Below, in pieces: positions 29,659-59,025 of a DNA stretch of 64,000 nt. The first letter of the stretch is position 1. Each line of letters opens with the position of its first letter. The notes beneath the pieces were generated by a model. The model did not search any database. It had not been told where the DNA came from and saw nothing but the letters and a program-made list of their open reading frames with translations. Source of the stretch: Gammaproteobacteria bacterium (GTDB lineage Bacteria > Pseudomonadota > Gammaproteobacteria > GCA-001735895); NCBI GenBank assembly GCA_050298595.1, contig JBNKUM010000118.1, positions 32,001 to 96,000 of the forward strand, read 5' to 3'. The translations under genes were made by a program, and so were the position numbers.

Positions 29659-30359
29659 ATACACAAAATGTCGATCACGCTGAAGTTGAAAAATTTCAGT
29701 CTATAGCCAGTCGCTGGTGGGATACCGAAAGCGAATTCAAAACCCTGCATGATATCAATCCCCTGCGCATCAATTATATTGAACAGCAATGCGGCGGACT
29801 GGAAGGCAAAAAGGTCCTGGACATAGGCTGCGGTGGCGGCATTCTATCAGAAGCCATGGCAGCAAAAGGCGCCATAGTAACAGGAATAGATATGGCGGAA
29901 TTGTCGCTTGATGTTGCGCGTATGCATTTAATGGAATCTGGCCTTAAGGTGGACTATCAGAAAATCACAGCTGAAGAATTCTGTGCTCTTCATACTCATC
30001 AATTCGATGTGGTTACCTGCATGGAATTACTTGAGCATGTACCTCAGCCATTATCCATAATCAATGCAGCCGCTCACTCACTAAAGCCAGAAGGCAGTAT
30101 GGTTTTATCCACGCTAAATAGAAATCCTAAATCCTATCTGCTGGCTATAGTCGGTGCCGAATACATCATGAAGATGCTGCCCAAAGGCACCCACGATTAC
30201 AATAAATTCATCAAGCCCTCAGAGCTTGCGCGAGCAGTTCGAGAATCGGGTATGGAAGTACAGGATGTCAGCGGCATGAGCTACCACCCCATTACCCGAC
30301 AATACAGTCTGAGTCGTGATGTAGATGTCAACTACCTGATGTCCTGTCGCCACAGATAA
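29655..30359 (+). CDS. ubiG: Ubiquinone biosynthesis O-methyltransferase
   Basis: NVDHAEVEKF, WWD, LHDINPLR, LDIGCGGGILSE, LPKGTHDYNKFIKPSEL. Confidence 0.97.
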   Translation: MNTQNVDHAEVEKFQSIASRWWDTESEFKTLHDINPLRINYIEQQCGGLEGKKVLDIGCGGGILSEAMAAKGAIVTGIDMAELSLDVARMHLMESGLKVDYQKITAEEFCALHTHQFDVVTCMELLEHVPQPLSIINAAAHSLKPEGSMVLSTLNRNPKSYLLAIVGAEYIMKMLPKGTHDYNKFIKPSELARAVRESGMEVQDVSGMSYHPITRQYSLSRDVDVNYLMSCRHR

Positions 30360-30365
30360 CTCCCT

Positions 30366-31016
30366 ATGACGATTCAGGCTATTTTATTCGACCTGGACGG
30401 CACCCTGGTCGATACAGCTCCCGATTTAGCGGTTGCACTAAATCACGTCGTGGCTGAAGAAGGGCTAGCCACCCTGCCGCTAGAAGAAATACGCCCGCAT
30501 GTTTCACGCGGCGGGCTGGCACTCATCCAGCTGGCATTCCAGCAACATCGTCAGGAACATGAACTTGAGCCCCTGCGCTTGCGTCTGCTGAACTATTATC
30601 TGGAGCATATCGCGGATCACTCGCGCCTGTTTGATGGTTTTGAATCGGTACTTGAAACTCTGGAAAACAATTCGATCCCCTGGGGCATAGTCACCAATAA
30701 ACCGGGCTGGCTCACCCAACCTTTATTAGTAGCATTAAAACTCGACCAACGCTCCGCTGTTACGATCTCTGCCGACACCACAGCACAAAAGAAACCGCAT
30801 CCTTTGCCGCTGACCACCGCAGCTGAGTTAATCAATGTTGATTGCAAAAACTGCCTGTATATTGGTGACGACCCACGCGATATTACTGCAGGTAACGCGG
30901 CTGAAATGATTACAGTCATCGCAAAATACGGCTATATAAGTGAGAATGCAGATCTGGACCAATGGCAGGCGCAACACCACATCGATTCTCCACAGCAAAT
31001 TCTTGAACTGATCTAA
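30366..31016 (+). CDS. HAD phosphatase (phosphoglycolate phosphatase / MupP-like)
   Basis: FDLDGTLVDTAPDL, VTNKP, KKPHP, YIGDDPRDI. The ubiG-HAD-yciK position matches Pseudomonas mupP. Confidence 0.85.
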   Translation: MTIQAILFDLDGTLVDTAPDLAVALNHVVAEEGLATLPLEEIRPHVSRGGLALIQLAFQQHRQEHELEPLRLRLLNYYLEHIADHSRLFDGFESVLETLENNSIPWGIVTNKPGWLTQPLLVALKLDQRSAVTISADTTAQKKPHPLPLTTAAELINVDCKNCLYIGDDPRDITAGNAAEMITVIAKYGYISENADLDQWQAQHHIDSPQQILELI

Positions 31017-50089: not shown

Positions 50090-51279
50090 CCCCTGACAGC
50101 AGGTTGAAAAATGTCTGGCAGCTATCCCTGGCCCAGGCATTAATGATGTCGGTGAATACCCTTCTATTCACCCTGTCCGCCATCCTTGGATATGAGCTTG
50201 CTGATACCAAGTCACTGGCTACCCTGCCACTGGCTATTCAATTTTGCATTACCATGCTAACCAGTTTTCCTGCTTCTATGTTTATGAACCGTTATGGGCG
50301 CAAGGCCGGATTCATTCTCAGCTCATTTATAGGATTCGCAGGAACGCTACTGGCCATTCTTGCGGTAAACGAACACTCTTTTGTTGTGTACTGCATGGCA
50401 ACAGCACTGTTTGGCATTTACACTGGATTTGGCAATTATTATCGCTTTGTAGCAGTCGAGGTTTCACCTCCAGAAAAACGAAATAACGCGATTTCCTATG
50501 TACTCGCTGGCGGTGTCATAGCAGCAGTGGTTGGCCCTAATCTCGCCAATTACACCAGAGATCTTTTCAGCATCGCCTATATTGGTAGTTTTATAGCAGT
50601 ATTTATCCTGTATGGATTTAACCTGCTCAATTTCTCCATAATGGATTTACCCAAACCAGTAAACCGTTCAATACAGGACTACGCTCGTCCACTCAAAGAG
50701 ATTATTGCACAGCCTGCTTATCTGGCAGCTCTGCTATCTGCCACTTTGGGGTATAGCATGATGTCGCTGTTGATGACTGCTACTCCTCTGGCGATGAAGC
50801 ATCACGACATGGGCTTAGGCGATGTTGCTTTTGTCATTCAATGGCACGTATTAGGTATGTTTGTGCCATCATTTTTTACTGGTCACCTAATGACCCGTTT
50901 TGGTATCGAACGCATTATGTTCATCGGCACCGTAGCGATCTTTGCTGCGATTACTATTAACCTGACTGGCAGCAGCATATGGAATTTCTGGCTGGCGTTA
51001 CTGTTACTCGGCGTAGGTTGGAATTTCATGTTTATCGGTGGGACAACCCTGCTAACAAAAACTTACACCGAAGTAGAAAAGGCAAAGGCTCAGGCTTTTA
51101 ATGACTTTATCGTTTTCAGTGCAGTGACCTTGTCATCTCTTGGAGCGGGTGCTTTACAGTACCTGCTGGGGTGGTGGATGGTAAATTTCAGTGTCATACC
51201 CTGCGTACTGATCTGTATGATCTCTATCGCCCTGTATGACCTACATAAACGCAGAGAGACTGCTCAGAATGTCTTTTAA
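50086..51279 (+). CDS. MFS transporter
   Basis: About 12 TM segments, MNRYGRKAGF, YRFVAVE, MTATPLAM, IQWHVLGMFVPSFFTGHL, GVGWNF. Confidence 0.92.
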   Translation: MTPDSRLKNVWQLSLAQALMMSVNTLLFTLSAILGYELADTKSLATLPLAIQFCITMLTSFPASMFMNRYGRKAGFILSSFIGFAGTLLAILAVNEHSFVVYCMATALFGIYTGFGNYYRFVAVEVSPPEKRNNAISYVLAGGVIAAVVGPNLANYTRDLFSIAYIGSFIAVFILYGFNLLNFSIMDLPKPVNRSIQDYARPLKEIIAQPAYLAALLSATLGYSMMSLLMTATPLAMKHHDMGLGDVAFVIQWHVLGMFVPSFFTGHLMTRFGIERIMFIGTVAIFAAITINLTGSSIWNFWLALLLLGVGWNFMFIGGTTLLTKTYTEVEKAKAQAFNDFIVFSAVTLSSLGAGALQYLLGWWMVNFSVIPCVLICMISIALYDLHKRRETAQNVF

Positions 51280-51708
51280 CTCTGGGAACTGATCACCTTT
51301 TTTGTACAGATGAAACTGCGATTCACTCAACTCGATAATATATCGTGATGGGCGTGGTGCCCCATAAATTGGACAGTTAACGACTTTACAGGGCAGTAAA
51401 AGTTTAATATCGACAATCTCAGCCTGTTCATCCATCCATATAACGGTTAGCGGGATGAGGGTATTTTTCATCCAGAAACGATAATTGCCTGATTTCGGAT
51501 AAACGAAAAGCATACCTTCATTATCAGCCAGTGACGCTCGATACATTAAGCCCTGCTGTCGCCGTTCATTATTGTCTGCAATCTGTAATTGATAATGCCG
51601 CTGGTTCAGGTTGATAGACAGAATATCAAAGGACATTCCTGAGGCTAAAGGCGAGACAGAAAAAATCAGCAGGTATATTAAACTAAAAGCAGTTAGAAAT
51701 ATTTTCAT
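51241..51708 (-). CDS. DUF192 family protein
   Basis: Signal/TM segment, IADNNERRQQGLMYR, EGMLFVY, FWMKNTLIPL, YIIEL. ATG 51708 chosen as the start. Confidence 0.88.
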   Translation of the reverse strand: MKIFLTAFSLIYLLIFSVSPLASGMSFDILSINLNQRHYQLQIADNNERRQQGLMYRASLADNEGMLFVYPKSGNYRFWMKNTLIPLTVIWMDEQAEIVDIKLLLPCKVVNCPIYGAPRPSRYIIELSESQFHLYKKGDQFPELKDILSSLSAFM

Positions 51709-51785
51709 CAGACTGTCTATGTGTGGATTGAGATAGAAGTATTGCCGCAATATAATGACTTCAAGCCGCCACTGCCTTAAAACGC

Positions 51786-51986
51786 TTAATCATGTTCTTC
51801 TATCCATGCCATCTGAATAGCTTCCAGAATTTTTTCATTTGAGCCTTCTGGGTTATCATCAAAATCATCCAGAGCACAAACCCAGCTATGTAGATCAGTA
51901 AAGCGAACATACTGGGGGTCTACATCCGCATGTGTTTGTTCCAGTTCAATCGCTATATCCAGTGTATCTATCCATTTTAAAGCCAT
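51786..51986 (-). CDS. iscX: Fe-S assembly protein IscX
   Basis: LKWIDTLDIAIEL, DPQYVRFTDLH, SNEKILEAIQMAWIEE. Confidence 0.95.
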   Translation of the reverse strand: MALKWIDTLDIAIELEQTHADVDPQYVRFTDLHSWVCALDDFDDNPEGSNEKILEAIQMAWIEEHD

Positions 51987-52182
51987 AGTTCACCTCCTCA
52001 GTATCATTAGCCTTAAATTATAAATCAGCTGTCGTAAAAACCTACTATTTTGAGACAAAATTGATGATTATGAATGTTTGATGCAGGTGCTTTATGGGAT
52101 ACTGAATCTGGGTTACTACTCTTATGCGAGTGGTCAACTGCAGAATCCAGGTTAAACTTGCTAAAAGCAAAGTAGCTGCACT

Positions 52183-52521
52183 TTAATGAGTTTCAGAAAC
52201 CATGTTGATGGTGTATTTAGGAATTTCAATAACCAGATCATTCTGATTAACCTTTGCCTGACAGCTTAAGCGGGAATCCGGTTCCAGACCCCAGGCTTTG
52301 TCCAGATAATCATCTTCATTCTCATCAGACTCTTCCAGGGTTTCAAAACCTTCTCGGATATAGACGTGGCAGGTGGTACAGGCACAGGATTTTTCACAGG
52401 CATGTTCAATTTCAATGCCATTCTGTAACAGCGCGTCACAGATACTAACACCGCTTTCGGCGTTAAACACTGCGCCATCGGGGCAAATTTCTTCATGTGG
52501 AAGTACGATAATCTGGGGCAT
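52183..52521 (-). CDS. fdx: ISC [2Fe-2S] ferredoxin
   Basis: [47 protein letters not shown]. Confidence 0.97.
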
Positions 52522-54393
52522 TTACACATCCACCTGTTCAATATTTTTTCCTGAGAGTACTTTCTGTACACTCGCATTCATACGTCGGGCCACGTACTCT
52601 TCGCTAGCCACTTCAACCTGCTTGATCGCCTTCTTCAAGCTATCGCTGGAAGCAGTTTCGATTATTCTTTCCAGCTCATCACGAACCGATTGAATCTGTT
52701 GATATTCATCATTTGATAACAGCTCATGACCATCCGATGCCAGCGCTGAATCTACTGCTTCTAACACACGTCTTGCTTCAACCTGCTGTTCAGCCAGCAT
52801 GCGCGCATCGATATCTTCTTTGGCATGCGACATAGAGTCACGCAGCATGGTCTCAATCTCATTATCCGTTAAACCATAGGAAGGTTTAATCACGATATCT
52901 GCACGCACTCCGCTACTTTTTTCTTCTGCCAATACTGATAGCAACCCATCTGCATCCACCTGATAGGTTACCCGGATACGTGCAGCCCCGGCTGTCATTG
53001 GAGGAATGCCGCGCAATTCGAAGTGGGCTAGTGAACGACAATCAGAAACCAGCTCACGCTCTCCCTGCACGACATGGAATGCCATTGCCGTCTGGCCATC
53101 CTTGAAGGTAGTAAACTCCTGTGCTCGAGCTACAGGGATAGGGCTATTCCGATCAATAATCTTTTCACTCAGTCCACCCATGGTTTCGATACACAGCGAT
53201 AATGGCAACACATCTAACAGCAACATTTCCTGGTCATTTTTATTACCTGCCAGTACATCCGCCTGTAAAGCTGCACCTATCGCCACTACCTTGTCCGGAT
53301 CAAGATCGATTAAGGGTTCGCGCTCAAAGAACTTACCCACCTGTTCAACAACCAGAGGAACCCGGGTAGATCCACCGACCATGACAACATTGGTTATTTC
53401 GCTTTTATCCAGCTTCGCATCGCGTAATACCCGGCGACAGGACATCAGGGTTTTCTTCACCAGATCCTGGATCAGACTATTCATGGTGTCGCGCGTCAGC
53501 GTTGTAGTAAAACTGAGGTTTGCGTGCTCAATCTTGATTTCAGTGGAATCATTTAAAGTCAGGTCTTCCTTGGCCTTACGTGCAGCAATCAGAATCTGAC
53601 GTGACAATATAGAATCTATCTTTTCTATACCGGCCTGTTTGATTATCCATTCACCGATATCGTTATCCATATCATCACCACCCAGAGAACTATTCCCGCC
53701 GGTGGCCAGTACTTCGAATACACCCTTATTCAAATGCAAAATGGAGATATCAAAGGTACCGCCACCCAGATCATAAATGGCAATAACACCATCGGGCTGT
53801 TGATCCAGGCCATAAGCGACCGCCGCTGCGGTTGGTTCGCCGAGCAATCGATACACATTCAATCCAGCCAGTCTGGCCGCATCACGCGTAGCCTGGCGCT
53901 GGGCATCATCGAAATAAGCAGGCACCGTAATCACAACACCGCTAAGTTCCTCACCCAATGTTTGTTCTGCACGATCAGCCAGAGATTTAAGTATTTCTGC
54001 AGATACCTCAATGGCACTCACATGCCTCTGTCGGGTAATGATACGTGGAACAGTAGAATCAGTATTGCCATCAAACTCATAGGGTAAGACATTAGAAAGG
54101 CCTTTCAGGTCTTCGATACCTCGGCCCATGATGCGTTTCACCGATGATAATGTATTCAATGGGTCGGAAGCCTGTAACAGCTGTGCTTCATACCCAACCA
54201 GAGTCTGTTCAGCGCCATAATGCACAATAGAGGGCAGCAAATGCCTGCCCGCTTCATCGGGCAGAGTTTCTATCTTGCCGCTGCGTTTTACCGCTACCAG
54301 TGAATTGGTAGTGCCAAGGTCAATACCCGCAGCATAATTACGATGGTGCGGCGCACTGGCTTGTCCAGGTTCTGTGATTTGTAGTAATGCCAT
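52522..54393 (-). CDS. hscA: Fe-S chaperone HscA (Hsp70)
   Basis: [44 protein letters not shown]. Confidence 0.97.
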
Positions 54394-54415
54394 GATTTAT
54401 TAGTGTTAACAGCCC

Positions 54416-54958
54416 CTAAAATAACTGATCTTCCAGCTCAAACTGAAAGTCGTCGAGCTGATCGAGTATACGTTGGACAAACTGCATTTTTTTGCTCACT
54501 TGACGCGCCTCTTCCAGCTTGCCCTGCTGATAGAGAGTTTCAAATTGTTCGGCATACTCTTTTGAGCGTTGGTCGAGTTTACCCGTCACATGATCGCAGC
54601 AACGCATGGGATCCTGGCAGCTTTTGCATTGATCCATCTCTTCGCGTATTTCAATCTGTTCCATCAGAAAAGCAGTATCATTGGTGGTTTCGTGCTCATC
54701 ATTCATATCCAGGCCACCGATTTCGAGCATATAGCGTGCTCTTTTCACCGAGTGATGCAGAATTTCATAAGCTTCGTTAATCCACGCTGCCTTTTGTACT
54801 GCTATACGCTTTTCCTGATCACTGCCATTTATAAAGCGATCAGGATGATAGGCTGCCTGTAATTTTTGGTGATTATCATGTAGCAGGCGCTTATCCAGTT
54901 GAAAATCAACCGGCAGGCCAAACAGCTCAAAGTAATTTTGATTCAGATCGAGTTGCAT
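54416..54958 (-). CDS. hscB: Fe-S co-chaperone HscB
   Basis: NYFELFGLPVDF, HPDRF J-motif, INEAY, RARYML, FLMEQIEIRE. ATG 54958 chosen as the start. Confidence 0.94.
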   Translation of the reverse strand: MQLDLNQNYFELFGLPVDFQLDKRLLHDNHQKLQAAYHPDRFINGSDQEKRIAVQKAAWINEAYEILHHSVKRARYMLEIGGLDMNDEHETTNDTAFLMEQIEIREEMDQCKSCQDPMRCCDHVTGKLDQRSKEYAEQFETLYQQGKLEEARQVSKKMQFVQRILDQLDDFQFELEDQLF

Positions 54959-54969
54959 ATCGGCAATAT

Positions 54970-55293
54970 TCAGACGGTAAAGCTTTCGCCGCAACCACAC
55001 TCATCCTTGGCATTAGGATTGGTGAACTTAAAGCCTTCATTAAGCCCTTCACGCGTAAAATCTACCTGAGTGCCATCGAGATAAACCAGGCTTTTCGGGT
55101 CTATAATGACCTTCACACCCTGGCTCTCAAACACCTGGTCTTCTTCGTTTAACTCGTCTACAAACTCGAGAACATAAGCCATACCTGAACAGCCCGTGGT
55201 CTTGATACCGATTCTCAAACCGATACCTGAACCTCGATTATCCAGAAAGCTCTTCACGCGTTGGGCAGCAGTTTCAGTCAAACTTATTGTCAT
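54970..55293 (-). CDS. iscA: A-type Fe-S carrier IscA
   Basis: [41 protein letters not shown]. Confidence 0.96.
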
Positions 55294-55304
55294 GTGTATC
55301 TCCT

Positions 55305-56459
55305 TCAGTTAGCTGCACGTCTAAAACTGGCAGGCACCTGATTGATTAAACTGTGTAACAAAGCAATCAGTTGATCGATTTGTTGACAGGTATTGTCATT
55401 ACCAAAACTAACCCTGACGGCATTCAGTGCCAGCGCTTCATCGACCCCCATGGCCCTGAGTACATGGCTGGGTTGAGTGACCGCACTATGACATGCTGAT
55501 CCACTGGCTAGCTCGAAACCGGCCTGATCAAGTTGCATCAGCAGGGTTTCACCGTGGTAGTAAGGAATTGAAAAGTAACTGGTATTGGGCAAACGTTCGC
55601 AGCTACCTGAAAAAATATGCACACCGCTTATGCCCATCAGTTGCTGTTCAAAATAGCGCCGCAATTCTAACAGATATGTCTGACGCTCTTGCAAATTTAT
55701 TTGTGCTAATTGCGCAGCTTTCCCCATACCCACCAGTAGTGCCACATTCTCAGTGCCAGCGCGTCGCCTGGATTCCTGTGGTCCACCACTTAGTAAAGGT
55801 TTTTTAATATTAGCCTTATGATTGAGTATTAACGCACCGCAGCCCTGTGGGCCCTGGAATTTATGTCCTGAGAGCGTTAACAGGCCTGCGTTTAGATCTT
55901 TAATATCAACCTCAATCTTGCCTACCGCCTGAGTAGCATCGGTATGCAGCAATAGATTATCTGACGAAACTTGTTCGAATAGTCGTTTTACTGGCTGAAT
56001 AGCGCCAGTTTCATTATTCGCTAGTTGCACTGATAGCAGATCAGGATTGTATTCAGCAATCACAGCGGTCGATTCTGAGACGTCTACCAATCCTTCAGCA
56101 TTCACCGCTAAATAAGCAGTGGATCCACCCATAGCCGCAATCTGCCTGACCGGTTCAAGAACACTGGCGTGTTCAATTGAGCTGCACATAATGCGACTGT
56201 TCTGGCTATCCGCAACAAAGCCTTTGATAGCTAAATTGTTTGCCTCAGTACCACCGCTAGTGAAGATAACGTTTGCAGCATCGGCATTCACCAGCTCAGC
56301 AACCTGCTGACGCGCACTCTCAATCGCTGAACGTAAAAAGCGGCCACTTTGATGCAGGCTGGAAGCATTGCCATGCGATGCCTTCAGGAAAGGTAACATA
56401 GCATCCAGCACTTCAGGGTGTAGCGGGGCTGAAGCATTATGATCAAGATACACGGGCAT
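55305..56459 (-). CDS. Group I cysteine desulfurase (IscS/NifS-like paralogue lacking the IscS C-terminal tail)
   Basis: [34 protein letters not shown] (PLP Lys), SGSACHS (catalytic Cys); 384 aa, no SPLW tail. Confidence 0.9.
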
Positions 56460-56471
56460 CGGCTTTAATAA

Positions 56472-56933
56472 TCAGGACTGGCCGGACGCCATGTAATGTG
56501 GAAAGTCCTGTTCTGTATAATCTTCGTCACTGATCTGGTTACGAATCATATCAGCCAGAGATATACCGGTCAGGTAGCTGGAAATCTGATTGCTTAATTC
56601 ATCCCACAGCTGTTCGGTGAGACAGGGCTCGTAATTATTGGCTCCTGGTAAGGCATCTTTATTAGTCACTTCAACCTTATCGTCTACCGCTAGAATGATG
56701 TCCGAGACACTCACCTGTTCTGGAGAAACACTCAATCGATACCCGCCGCCAGGGCCACGCGTACTGATAACCAGCTTATTACGCCGCATCTTGGCGAATA
56801 ACTGTTCCAGATAGGACAGGGAAATCCCCTGACGTTGAGAGATATCTGCTAAGGATACGGGTCCCTTATCCGAGTGCATAACCATATCGAGTAATGAAGT
56901 AACTGCATATCTGCTTTTGGTGGATAAACGCAT
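56472..56933 (-). CDS. iscR: IscR-family Rrf2 regulator with a degenerate cluster-binding motif
   Basis: MRLSTKSRYAVT, GPVSLADISQRQGISLSYLEQLFAK, RGPGGGY; only one Cys in the protein. Confidence 0.9.
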   Translation of the reverse strand: MRLSTKSRYAVTSLLDMVMHSDKGPVSLADISQRQGISLSYLEQLFAKMRRNKLVISTRGPGGGYRLSVSPEQVSVSDIILAVDDKVEVTNKDALPGANNYEPCLTEQLWDELSNQISSYLTGISLADMIRNQISDEDYTEQDFPHYMASGQS

Positions 56934-56965
56934 TGGTACACCTGTTGTTTGGCCGATTTCGAGTC

Positions 56966-57023
56966 AGTATACAATCCTGACTAAATTGGTCAAGTATTAA
57001 TTCCTACTATTTTAGTCGGGATT
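56966..57023 (-). promoter_or_regulatory. isc promoter with two tandem type-1 IscR boxes
   Basis: Minus strand AATCCCGACTAAAATAGTAGGAATT (57023-56999) and ATACTTGACCAATTTAGTCAGGATT (56997-56973); the latter contains -35 TTGACC, 16 nt before -10 TATACT. Confidence 0.8.
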
Positions 57024-57048
57024 AATATTGATTTCTTCAGGCTACCCA

Positions 57049-58338
57049 TCAGGCCACTGGCAATATTATCCGAACCAGGCTCCCCTCACCTAACTGACTT
57101 TGTATCAGCATTTCAGCCTGATGTGCATCGACTATCTTTTGACAAAGGTACAACCCGAGCCCAAAACCACCGGTAGCCCGCTGGCGCGCAGGGTCGGCTC
57201 GATAGAAAGCCTCGGTAGCCTGATTCAGGTCTTCTGTAGCCATACCGCAGCCATGATCTTCCACCTCTATGACGATGTTTTGCCGGTGTTGTATTAGTCT
57301 GATCTCTGGACTTACGTCTGACTCGGAAGAGTACTTGAATGCGTTATCTAACAGATTTTTCACTAAAAGCTCCAATCTAGCTCTATCAGCATTGATTGAG
57401 ATTGAAGGAAGAGAGGCTGTTATTGACCTGTCGGCAAAAAATTCATTTAACAGCTCTCTAATCATTTCATCCAGTTGAAAATCAGTTCGATTGAGCACAG
57501 CGTGCGGCCGATTCAAACGCTCCGACTCCAGTATCAATGCGAGCAGGCTTTCCATCTCGCGAATATCATCCACCAGCGCCTGGCGTGTCGCATCATCAGC
57601 CATGAGCTCAAGGTTTACTCTTGCTCGTGTTAAGGGTGATCTCAGCTCATGACTGATGGCGAGTAGCAGTTGCTGCTTGGCTTCCAGCATCGAATGTATC
57701 TGCTGTGCCATTTCATTAATGCCCTGCCCCAGGCTCTTAAATTCAATACTGCCCGTGGGTTCCAATGGTTGTAAAAGGTCCCCCTGGCCAATTCGTGCGA
57801 CAGCATCGTTGATCGGCTTTAGCGGTTTTAAGCTCTGTCGAATCAACACAAACAGAAACACAAGCGTAACAATAAAAATCACCAACATGGAAAAACCTCG
57901 TTGGTGTGATTCGCTTTTGAATAAACGGCCAACTGCGTAGAGATAGGTATAACCATCCTGTTTCAGCATCAGATAATTATTACCTCGTTCAAAGGCAAGC
58001 TGATAACGCTGGTAGGGTTCGGGTGCATTTTCGAAATCTAACTGTGAAATATCGGGTATTTTTGAATGAGATTGCCAGTTTATATCTGGACCACGTATCG
58101 AAAGCTCAAATGCTAGCCCATCACTTAAACGGCGCGCTTTATCGATATCCGGTGGGCTGCCAATATCCTGCACTATGTAGTCCAGATATTGCACAATATT
58201 TGGCAATAGATCCTGCTTAAAGTGCGCCTTGATACTATGAGCCAGATTGATACCAAACAGGGCAATTACCAGCACACCTGTTACCAGAAAATACAGCATT
58301 AAACGAGTGATCAAAGATTGCCTTAAGCGTTGCAACAT
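57049..58338 (-). CDS. HAMP-domain sensor histidine kinase
   Basis: Two TMs, HAMP, ISHELRSPL H-box, NLLDNAFKY, DHGCG, FYRAD, GGFGLGL. Confidence 0.94.
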   Translation of the reverse strand: MLQRLRQSLITRLMLYFLVTGVLVIALFGINLAHSIKAHFKQDLLPNIVQYLDYIVQDIGSPPDIDKARRLSDGLAFELSIRGPDINWQSHSKIPDISQLDFENAPEPYQRYQLAFERGNNYLMLKQDGYTYLYAVGRLFKSESHQRGFSMLVIFIVTLVFLFVLIRQSLKPLKPINDAVARIGQGDLLQPLEPTGSIEFKSLGQGINEMAQQIHSMLEAKQQLLLAISHELRSPLTRARVNLELMADDATRQALVDDIREMESLLALILESERLNRPHAVLNRTDFQLDEMIRELLNEFFADRSITASLPSISINADRARLELLVKNLLDNAFKYSSESDVSPEIRLIQHRQNIVIEVEDHGCGMATEDLNQATEAFYRADPARQRATGGFGLGLYLCQKIVDAHQAEMLIQSQLGEGSLVRIILPVA

Positions 58339-58344
58339 GTACTT

Positions 58345-59025
58345 TTACTCGCTAATAACGGGTGGTAAAACAAATTGATAACCTCTGGCACGTATGGTTT
58401 TGATTATCTGCAGCGGGTTCAGCTTTTGACGTAAACGACTGATTTGAATATCAATCGCTCGGCTAAAGATATCGGCTTCGATTCCATTTAACTCAGTCAT
58501 AATGTCATCGCGCGAAAAGACTTTTTGCGGCTGCTGCGCCAATAGCAGTAAAAGCCGGTATTCATTGGAAGTGAGATCCACAATCCCATCATCCGTTTTA
58601 ACCTGCTGGGTTTGAGTATCAATCTTTAGTCCCTCAAAAACTAACTCGTGACTGGATTTAACAATAACCGATCGCTTGAGAATATTTTTAATTCTCGCAA
58701 CCAGTTCGCGAGGTTCGAAGGGTTTTGGCAGGTAATCGTCAGCTCCAATCTCAAGACCAACTACTCTGTCCATCACATCACCTCTGGCAGTTAGCATTAA
58801 TACAGGGGTTTCAGAAAACTGGCGGATTCTTCTACAGGTTTCGAAGCCATCGATTTCCGGAAGCATAACGTCGAGAATGATTAACTCGAACGAATGCCCT
58901 CTTAACAACTCCAGAGCCTTCAGTGGATGAGTTTCGCTGGATAATTCAAAGTCAAACTGCGCCAGATACGCCTTAAGTGGTGCAGCCAGTTTTTCATCGT
59001 CATCAATCAAAAGTAGCTTTTTCAT
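58345..59025 (-). CDS. OmpR/CpxR-family response regulator
   Basis: IDDD, LDVMLP, MLTARGD, GADDYLPKPFEPREL, RAIDIQISRLRQK. Confidence 0.95.
   Translation of the reverse strand: MKKLLLIDDDEKLAAPLKAYLAQFDFELSSETHPLKALELLRGHSFELIILDVMLPEIDGFETCRRIRQFSETPVLMLTARGDVMDRVVGLEIGADDYLPKPFEPRELVARIKNILKRSVIVKSSHELVFEGLKIDTQTQQVKTDDGIVDLTSNEYRLLLLLAQQPQKVFSRDDIMTELNGIEADIFSRAIDIQISRLRQKLNPLQIIKTIRARGYQFVLPPVISE

Follow-up and report, generated by a model that had tools for sequence, protein, structure and literature searches.

The 64,000-nucleotide stretch of DNA from a Gammaproteobacteria bacterium considered here (contig JBNKUM010000118.1, positions 32,001 to 96,000; below, the window) carries an operon for iron-sulfur (Fe-S) cluster assembly of the ISC type, and it raises the question of what the chaperones HscB and HscA act upon when their genes stand in an operon that has neither the scaffold gene iscU nor a canonical iscS. 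An earlier note on this DNA proposed a scaffold-less system. The genome as a whole points elsewhere. A canonical iscS and an iscU with the LPPVK motif lie on another contig of the same assembly, C56, behind an iscR gene of their own, and the window can be read, with a probability of roughly 85%, as the downstream half of an ordinary ISC system now divided between two transcription units, with HscA and HscB acting in trans.

Seven genes are arranged head to tail on the minus strand in the order iscR2, Des2, iscA, hscB, hscA, fdx and iscX, as identified from open reading frames (ORFs) and from NCBIfam and Pfam profiles. The features, with protein lengths in amino acids (aa) and distances in nucleotides (nt), are as follows.

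56966..57019, minus strand: iscR2 promoter region, sigma-70-like, with two IscR type-1-like boxes (promoter scan, motif matches)
56472..56933, minus strand: iscR2, an Rrf2/IscR-like regulator of 153 aa (Rrf2 Pfam match; TIGR02010 172.6 bits, cut-off 207.55)
55305..56459, minus strand: Des2, a class-V aminotransferase-fold, class-I (IscS/NifS-like) cysteine desulfurase of 384 aa (PF00266, 242 bits)
55294..55304, minus strand: Des2-iscA spacer of 11 nt with a Shine-Dalgarno motif inside (sequence)
54970..55293, minus strand: iscA, an A-type carrier of 107 aa (TIGR02011 188.9 bits, cut-off 150.6)
54416..54958, minus strand: hscB, a J-type co-chaperone of 180 aa from the ATG at 54958 (TIGR00714 105.5 bits, cut-off 46.75)
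52522..54393, minus strand: hscA, an Hsp70-type chaperone of 623 aa (TIGR01991 859.7 bits, cut-off 708.55)
52183..52521, minus strand: fdx, an ISC [2Fe-2S] ferredoxin of 112 aa (TIGR02007 179.9 bits, cut-off 132.1)
51786..51986, minus strand: iscX, 66 aa (TIGR03412 110.4 bits, cut-off 40.4)

The HscB/HscA pair, Fdx, IscA and IscX expected of an ISC system are all present in the window and exceed their curated NCBIfam cut-offs, while IscR2 and Des2 remain below theirs. The gene order, the 11-nt spacing, the absence of iscU and of a canonical iscS from the operon, and a Des2 without the SPLW tail were all described correctly in the earlier note, as judged from ORFs, NCBIfam profiles, sequence and alignment. 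The 11 nt between the Des2 stop codon TGA and the ATG of iscA, AGGAGATACAC, contain an AAGGAG motif that borrows the final A of the stop codon; they hold no ORF and no remnant of iscS or iscU, for which they leave no room. This junction is genuine. Des2 and iscA are directly adjacent also in seven other assemblies (L005-L010 and L062), and positions 55294-55304 are bridged by Logan contigs from two runs of two studies (X3, record 15, 55070-55667; X5, record 28, 54988-55385), which are assembled contigs rather than raw reads and neither of which reports a joint there. HscB had also been called altered, a description that does not hold. The ORF as listed (194 aa) opens at a GTG inside iscA; with translation from the ATG at 54958, nearly the whole protein aligns with the solved HscB chains 4it5 (E 2.7e-35) and 1fpo (E 3e-31), and it keeps the HPD motif, shares the FLMEQ stretch of 4it5, and contains an HSCB_C domain scoring 45.7 bits (cut-off 22.1).

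The window's own assembly (G000; 119 contigs, 98.6% complete, 1.84% estimated contamination) was searched for IscU/NifU_N, canonical IscS and SufBD. The NifU_N profile gives two matches, on contigs C56 and C85, the latter being the N-domain of a 300-aa NifU that adjoins NifS. On C56, iscR1 (160 aa), iscS (410 aa) and iscU (125 aa) are followed directly by the gene for the large subunit of acetolactate synthase, and the unit therefore comprises iscR-iscS-iscU only. Its IscS scores 755.4 bits on TIGR02006 (cut-off 643.2) and 777.3 bits on NF010611 (cut-off 548), and possesses the LSPLW tail and C-terminal IscU-docking helix of the canonical enzyme. Its IscU scores 222.5 bits on TIGR01999 (cut-off 192.4) and has the three cysteines of a scaffold together with LPPVK, read as LPPVKIHCS in the translation. 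IscR1 carries CX5CX5CXXH, and with 199.1 bits on TIGR02010 lies slightly under the cut-off of 207.55. C56 is judged to belong to the window's genome and not to be a stray contig because the two agree in GC content (0.462 and 0.451), in tetranucleotide composition (correlation 0.944, against -0.18 to 0.26 for three loci from other genomes) and in synonymous divergence (dS; 0.40-0.51 for iscS/iscU, 0.31-0.71 for the window genes). These dS values, like the ratios of nonsynonymous to synonymous rates (dN/dS) given below, come from a single pair, the window genome and its same-genus relative L005. Across the whole genome one HSCB_C match and one HscA match above cut-off are found, both inside the window, and SUFBD_core has no match in this 98.6%-complete genome, the control search being positive in 14 of 14 reference genomes. 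Contig C85 also bears a NIF-type set (278843-281206, locus L004) in which an IscA-like gene, the 300-aa NifU and a 423-aa NifS stand together; nitrogen fixation is probable for this organism, which would use NIF alongside ISC and no SUF.

The LPPVK motif of IscU is the binding site of HscA. Since HscB and HscA are encoded only in the window and the only housekeeping IscU on C56, the plain reading is that they would work together in trans, in which case a new client is unneeded. The C56 unit would make the persulfide and build the cluster on IscU; the window's unit would provide Fdx as reductant, IscA as A-type carrier and IscX, and its HscB and HscA would bind LPPVK of the C56 IscU and release the cluster. 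IscR1 is proposed to sense the cluster supply and to shut both promoters. IscR2 and Des2 may be accessory, lineage-modified components, Des2 being a faster-evolving desulfurase without the IscU-docking C-terminal helix. Of this scheme, the gene content, the split, the ligand loss in IscR2, the conservation and the boxes are observed; joint action in trans, co-repression and the parts played by IscR2 and Des2 are inferred.

The history of the split was traced in 64 loci with relatives of Des2, taken from species-representative genomes and annotated by tblastn with the proteins of the window and of C56. Des2, iscS and iscU are contiguous in 14 of these loci, from other Gamma- and Betaproteobacteria whose records are labelled Candidatus (Ca.) Muproteobacteria, Acidiferrobacteraceae, Rhodocyclaceae or unnamed Gammaproteobacteria. 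Eleven of the 14 have iscR just upstream, and the remaining three lose it to the end of the contig; eleven run on via iscA, hscB and hscA to iscX, among them L023, without an fdx match. Two loci with foreign labels, L012 (Bacteroidota; Des2-iscS-iscU only) and L028 (Ca. Methylomirabilis; the full operon), have isc genes nested within sequences of the Ca. Muproteobacteria type and are probably mis-binned contigs rather than transfers. The survey of relatives for the window's own order, iscR2-Des2-iscA-hscB-hscA(-fdx-iscX), found it in seven loci, an eighth (L054) being cut off within Des2, and in all five genomes behind L005, L008, L009, L010 and L062 iscR1-iscS-iscU is found on a separate contig, and their IscU is 90-97% identical.

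A sample of 40 relatives contained 24 genomes of the window's family besides its own, in four genera. A Des2 orthologue of at least 53% identity is present in 21 of the 24 and was not found in G008 (86% complete), G017 (74%) and G026 (97%); IscU is present in 22 and was not found in G013 (79% complete) and G017. All 20 genomes that hold both have Des2 and iscU on different contigs. In the same-class outgroups G031 and G040, Des2, IscS and IscU are contiguous. The split arrangement is thus a family-level trait, and the proposal that iscS-iscU moved cleanly away from an ancestral two-desulfurase operon is supported, because Des2-iscS-iscU is contiguous elsewhere and the split form is found in the window's family. 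The ancestor would have had the operon iscR-Des2-iscS-iscU-iscA-hscBA-fdx-iscX; iscS-iscU would have left with a conservative copy of iscR, and the copy that stayed beside Des2 would have lost three of its four cluster ligands. The dN/dS check that had been suggested for the chaperone genes gives 0.024 for both hscA and hscB, and iscA (0.017), Des2 (0.118) and iscR2 (0.104) are also under purifying selection.

The promoters of both units carry IscR type-1 boxes, at the core promoter or next to it. A sigma-70-like promoter, TTGACC-16-TATACT, was found by promoter scan at 56993..56966 with 10 of 12 matches, and two type-1 boxes lie at 56977-56993, overlapping the -35 hexamer, and at 57003-57019. 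The type-1 consensus YYGACTRWWWYAGTCRR (from PMC3899308, in excerpt), allowing at most one mismatch, matches only these two places in the window, against 0.12 expected, and none of 100 shuffles reached two. A perfect type-1 box lies 18 nt upstream of iscR1 on C56. Among relatives, a box with at most one mismatch is present in seven of eight iscR2 promoters, that of L005 matching only at up to two mismatches, and in five of five iscR1 promoters. Type-1 sites are the route of repression by holo-IscR (PMC3899308, in excerpt), and the shared boxes suggest, as the simplest model, that IscR1 in its cluster-loaded form is most likely the common repressor of both units. The type-2 motif ANNNCCNNANNNNNNNTANGGNNNT, as quoted in PMC4169559, has one match in the window, at 30358-30382, remote from the operon; with 27 of 100 shuffles equalling it, this match is uninformative.

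That IscR is altered, as the earlier note had also stated, is confirmed by an alignment of 32 sequences (9 of the IscR2 clade, 17 from other lineages and 6 IscR1). The [2Fe-2S] ligands of E. coli IscR are C92, C98, C104 and H107 (PMC3899308, in excerpt), and at these positions IscR2 of the window has K, A, C and E, so that three of the four are gone. All nine members of the IscR2 clade have K/R, A/S/P, C and E, with C104 and E107 invariant, whereas the other 23 rows have C, C, C and H (one IscR1 fragment spans just the last three positions). IscR2 lacks the [2Fe-2S] ligand set as well as the score of the IscR family (172.6 bits on TIGR02010 against 207.55). It does have the recognition stretch SLSYLEQLF intact, including S40, E43 and Q44, whose roles are treated in PMC9973013 and PMC3899308 (both in excerpt), and it stands at the head of an isc operon behind type-1 boxes. 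The two paralogues of this genome are 50% identical. An IscR2 without a cluster does not follow from the missing ligands, since the IscR of R. sphaeroides has a single cysteine yet binds a cluster (PMC4618611, in excerpt). At somewhat below even odds, IscR2 may be a regulator that senses Fe-S status in a changed way or not at all, and the stricter claim that it carries no cluster is put forward just as tentatively.

Several points weigh against the reading of one ISC system in two co-repressed units. The co-regulation of the units is argued for by motif matches. IscR2 retains E43, the residue that in E. coli keeps apo-IscR off type-1 sites (PMC3899308, in excerpt), and its promoter has no type-2 site. 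The tree of IscR sequences recovers IscR2 and IscR1 as two clades, each with a support of 100 and with stems of 1.14 and 0.82 respectively, but they join in a polytomy, which gives a duplication within the family no backing. With a draft genome of 119 contigs, the distance between the two units is not given by the assembly; and location on different contigs does not in itself prove separation, an objection answered by the direct Des2-iscA junctions, which do.

Des2 lies under all NCBIfam equivalog cut-offs, its top profile being NifS (TIGR03402; 375 bits against 530.75); on the IscS side it scores 291.5 bits on TIGR02006 (643.2) and 297 bits on NF010611 (548). It does not qualify as IscS, for besides the short score the segment of C-terminal helix alpha12 is absent, nor as NifS, for the genome's true NifS stands beside NifU on C85 and Des2 groups apart. 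Des2 is 34% identical to the IscS of its own genome, the alignment stopping at IscS residue 383 of 410, and it ends in PASFRRAAN, without the LSPLW motif. In E. coli IscS, helix alpha12 (Arg379-Lys391) contacts IscU, and deletion of residues 376-404 abolishes binding (PMC2854127, in excerpt); Des2 has no segment that matches this docking helix. Across 19 aligned Des2 rows the catalytic histidine (IEH), the lysine for pyridoxal phosphate (SGHK) and the loop cysteine (SGSAC) are conserved, residues by which Des2 is assigned as a catalytically intact class-I cysteine desulfurase, and its short tail has the conserved form ..R(R/Q)AA. In a quick IQ-TREE analysis of 98 desulfurases, the Des2 clade (52 rows, SH-aLRT 93) is apart from the one in which IscS and the genome's NifS are placed (39 rows, 97); the stem of Des2 in the split family measures 0.81 and that of the family's IscS 0.08. 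The dN/dS of Des2 is four to seven times the values of iscA, hscB, hscA and iscS, and still clearly purifying. IscS2 of A. fulgidus has reportedly been crystallised with IscU. It is the closest solved relative of Des2 (4r5f/4eb5; 382 aa) and has a tail just as short, a comparison by which the short tail need not exclude IscU as a partner.

The iscR-Des2 pair heads several types of operon, one of them with iscSU. In L015 it precedes iscA-sufB-sufC-sufD-sufS and a NifU_N protein, and in L055 (Maricaulis) sufB...sufD, SufB and SufD being confirmed there. In the gammaproteobacterial loci L018 (8827-10373) and L042 (7510-8814), iscR-Des2-iscA is followed by ndk and rlmN and by rlmN only, respectively, and these may represent another, independent truncation of the two-desulfurase operon. 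In seven Nevskiaceae loci, which show no iscR match, Des2 is followed by an IscS-like gene (44-56% identity to IscS) and by iscA; four of them have a NifU_N-like gene between these last two. PMC9628965 says nothing on second desulfurases. Within the window's family, the Des2 orthologue of a same-genus genome (69% identity; G007, contig C46, 5489-6634) has an in-frame TAG, and the nearly complete G026, of the same family, has no orthologue, its top matches being IscS-like at 35-38%; for these reasons parts of the family may be able to do without Des2, or may be losing it.

These peculiarities allow an extension of the split-system reading that is possible though rather doubtful, namely that the split has produced a two-tier regulon, with IscR2 either permanently apo-like or a sensor of some other signal and Des2 as a member of an IscU-independent subfamily. 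IscR2 may then set the chaperone/carrier half and Des2 apart from the feedback of IscR1, or modulate IscR1 at the shared boxes, and the Des2 subfamily with the ..R(R/Q)AA tail would head ISC, SUF and mixed operons across Proteobacteria.

Of the competing explanations, the one that survives best, although it is unlikely, makes the window's unit semi-autonomous: Des2 would also feed IscA or another acceptor, in cluster repair or for a thio-cofactor, under IscR2 control that is free of Fe-S status, and the split would then have set up a functionally distinct module. It draws on the retained catalytic residues and purifying selection of Des2, on the three ligands missing throughout the IscR2 clade, and on the variety of operons headed by iscR-Des2 (with iscSU, with sufBCD-sufS or with iscA only), which suggests no fixed link of Des2 to IscU. 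Against this, Des2 may be dispensable, the equally short A. fulgidus IscS2 leaves IscU possible as its partner, and the type-1 boxes of the iscR2 promoter resemble those of iscR1.

The scaffold-less reading of the earlier note, by which HscA and HscB serve a new client in IscU-independent Fe-S delivery or repair, perhaps alongside SUF, is very improbable. It rightly started from an operon without iscU or canonical iscS and from a Des2 without the helix by which E. coli IscS docks IscU (PMC2854127, in excerpt). The finding that the same note had named as fatal to it, a canonical iscS with an LPPVK-bearing iscU, is present on C56, as it is in five of five relatives with the same form of operon; the window's hscBA are the sole copies, without which IscU would have no chaperones; HscB is ordinary; and the lack of a SufBD core in the genome speaks against help from SUF. 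An IscU-independent route, another client and an undescribed system are accordingly left unsupported. An artefact, either a misassembly at 55294-55304 or a mis-binned iscSU contig, might be suspected in a draft of 119 contigs with 1.84% estimated contamination, and is practically dismissed by the recurrence of the junction in seven other assemblies, its bridging by contigs of two runs, and the likeness of C56 to the window both in composition and in dS measured against the sister genome.

Scans within and around the operon add little to this picture. Internal promoter-like sites (11, with 11.6 expected) and terminator-like sites (6, with 4.4 expected) are at chance level, and an Rfam scan of 51000-57300 at E<=0.1 gave zero matches. 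The 196-nt spacer between fdx and iscX (51987-52182) is non-coding, with no notable ORF. It is about 200 nt long in L005 as well and just 12-33 nt in the remaining family loci, and run X4 contains one contig that lacks 45 nt of it (52138 to 52184). Contigs of run X12, an RNA library with 5% of the sampled words, cover parts of fdx, hscA, hscB, Des2 and iscR2 in eight pieces with 0-17 differing letters each; as the library may contain DNA, they are not taken as evidence of expression. Right after iscX lies a DUF192 (COG1430) gene (51241-51750, minus strand) with an N-terminal hydrophobic segment, kept in this position only in the same-genus locus L005 according to tblastn. Directly upstream of iscR2 and on the same strand (57049-59025, minus), a two-component pair, read from translations only, is made up of a response regulator of the OmpR type (226 aa) and a histidine kinase (429 aa).

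The significance of the locus lies in three features. It provides a clean, family-wide case of the textbook operon cut in two, with the regulator duplicated and the operator boxes kept at both promoters. It offers a natural IscR paralogue without three ligands beside an intact one, a ready system for asking what an apo-type IscR does. And it draws attention to Des2 as a widespread, unstudied clade of desulfurases that follow iscR in ISC, SUF and mixed operons without the IscU-docking tail. Chaperones without a scaffold would have been the more striking claim, and it dissolves since the scaffold is encoded elsewhere in the genome; current models of Fe-S biogenesis are overturned by none of these findings. 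Open-access papers and preprints yielded no description of the split ISC arrangement and no account of an intact IscR accompanied by a paralogue without ligands.

Compared with the iscRSUA-hscBA-fdx-iscX operon of E. coli and Azotobacter, the genome has the same components, with IscS, IscU, IscA, HscB, HscA, Fdx and IscX over their cut-offs and IscR1 just under, and the same type-1 boxes at the promoter; it differs in having two units, each with its own IscR paralogue, and an extra Des2 after iscR2. The two-desulfurase operon of Ca. Muproteobacteria, Acidiferrobacteraceae and Rhodocyclaceae shares the genes and their order, with a Des2 that is 46-49% identical and of the same clade, but there Des2 and iscA flank iscS-iscU, and the only IscR has all four ligands, C, C, C and H. 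The alphaproteobacterial isc-suf operon iscR-iscS-sufBCDS, described for Caulobacter (PMC11475020) and Rhodobacter (PMC4618611; both in excerpt), likewise has an IscS-like desulfurase after iscR and, in the excerpts, no iscU; the Caulobacter enzyme is about 35% identical to E. coli IscS (PMC11475020, in excerpt), and in our tree the desulfurases after iscR in Maricaulaceae and Rhodovibrio fall within the Des2 clade. As excerpted, that operon differs in that SUF genes follow, without hscBA, fdx or iscX, whereas the present genome has no SufBD. The R. sphaeroides IscR resembles IscR2 in having one cysteine left in the ligand region, but according to the same excerpt (PMC4618611) it is the cell's only IscR and its cysteine is non-canonical, while IscR2 keeps the canonical C104 and shares its cell with an IscR1 that has all its ligands. 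The locus is a member of the ISC system and not a new system, and it departs from the textbook operon in its two units, its duplicated regulator with one ligand-poor copy, and its retained, short-tailed second desulfurase.

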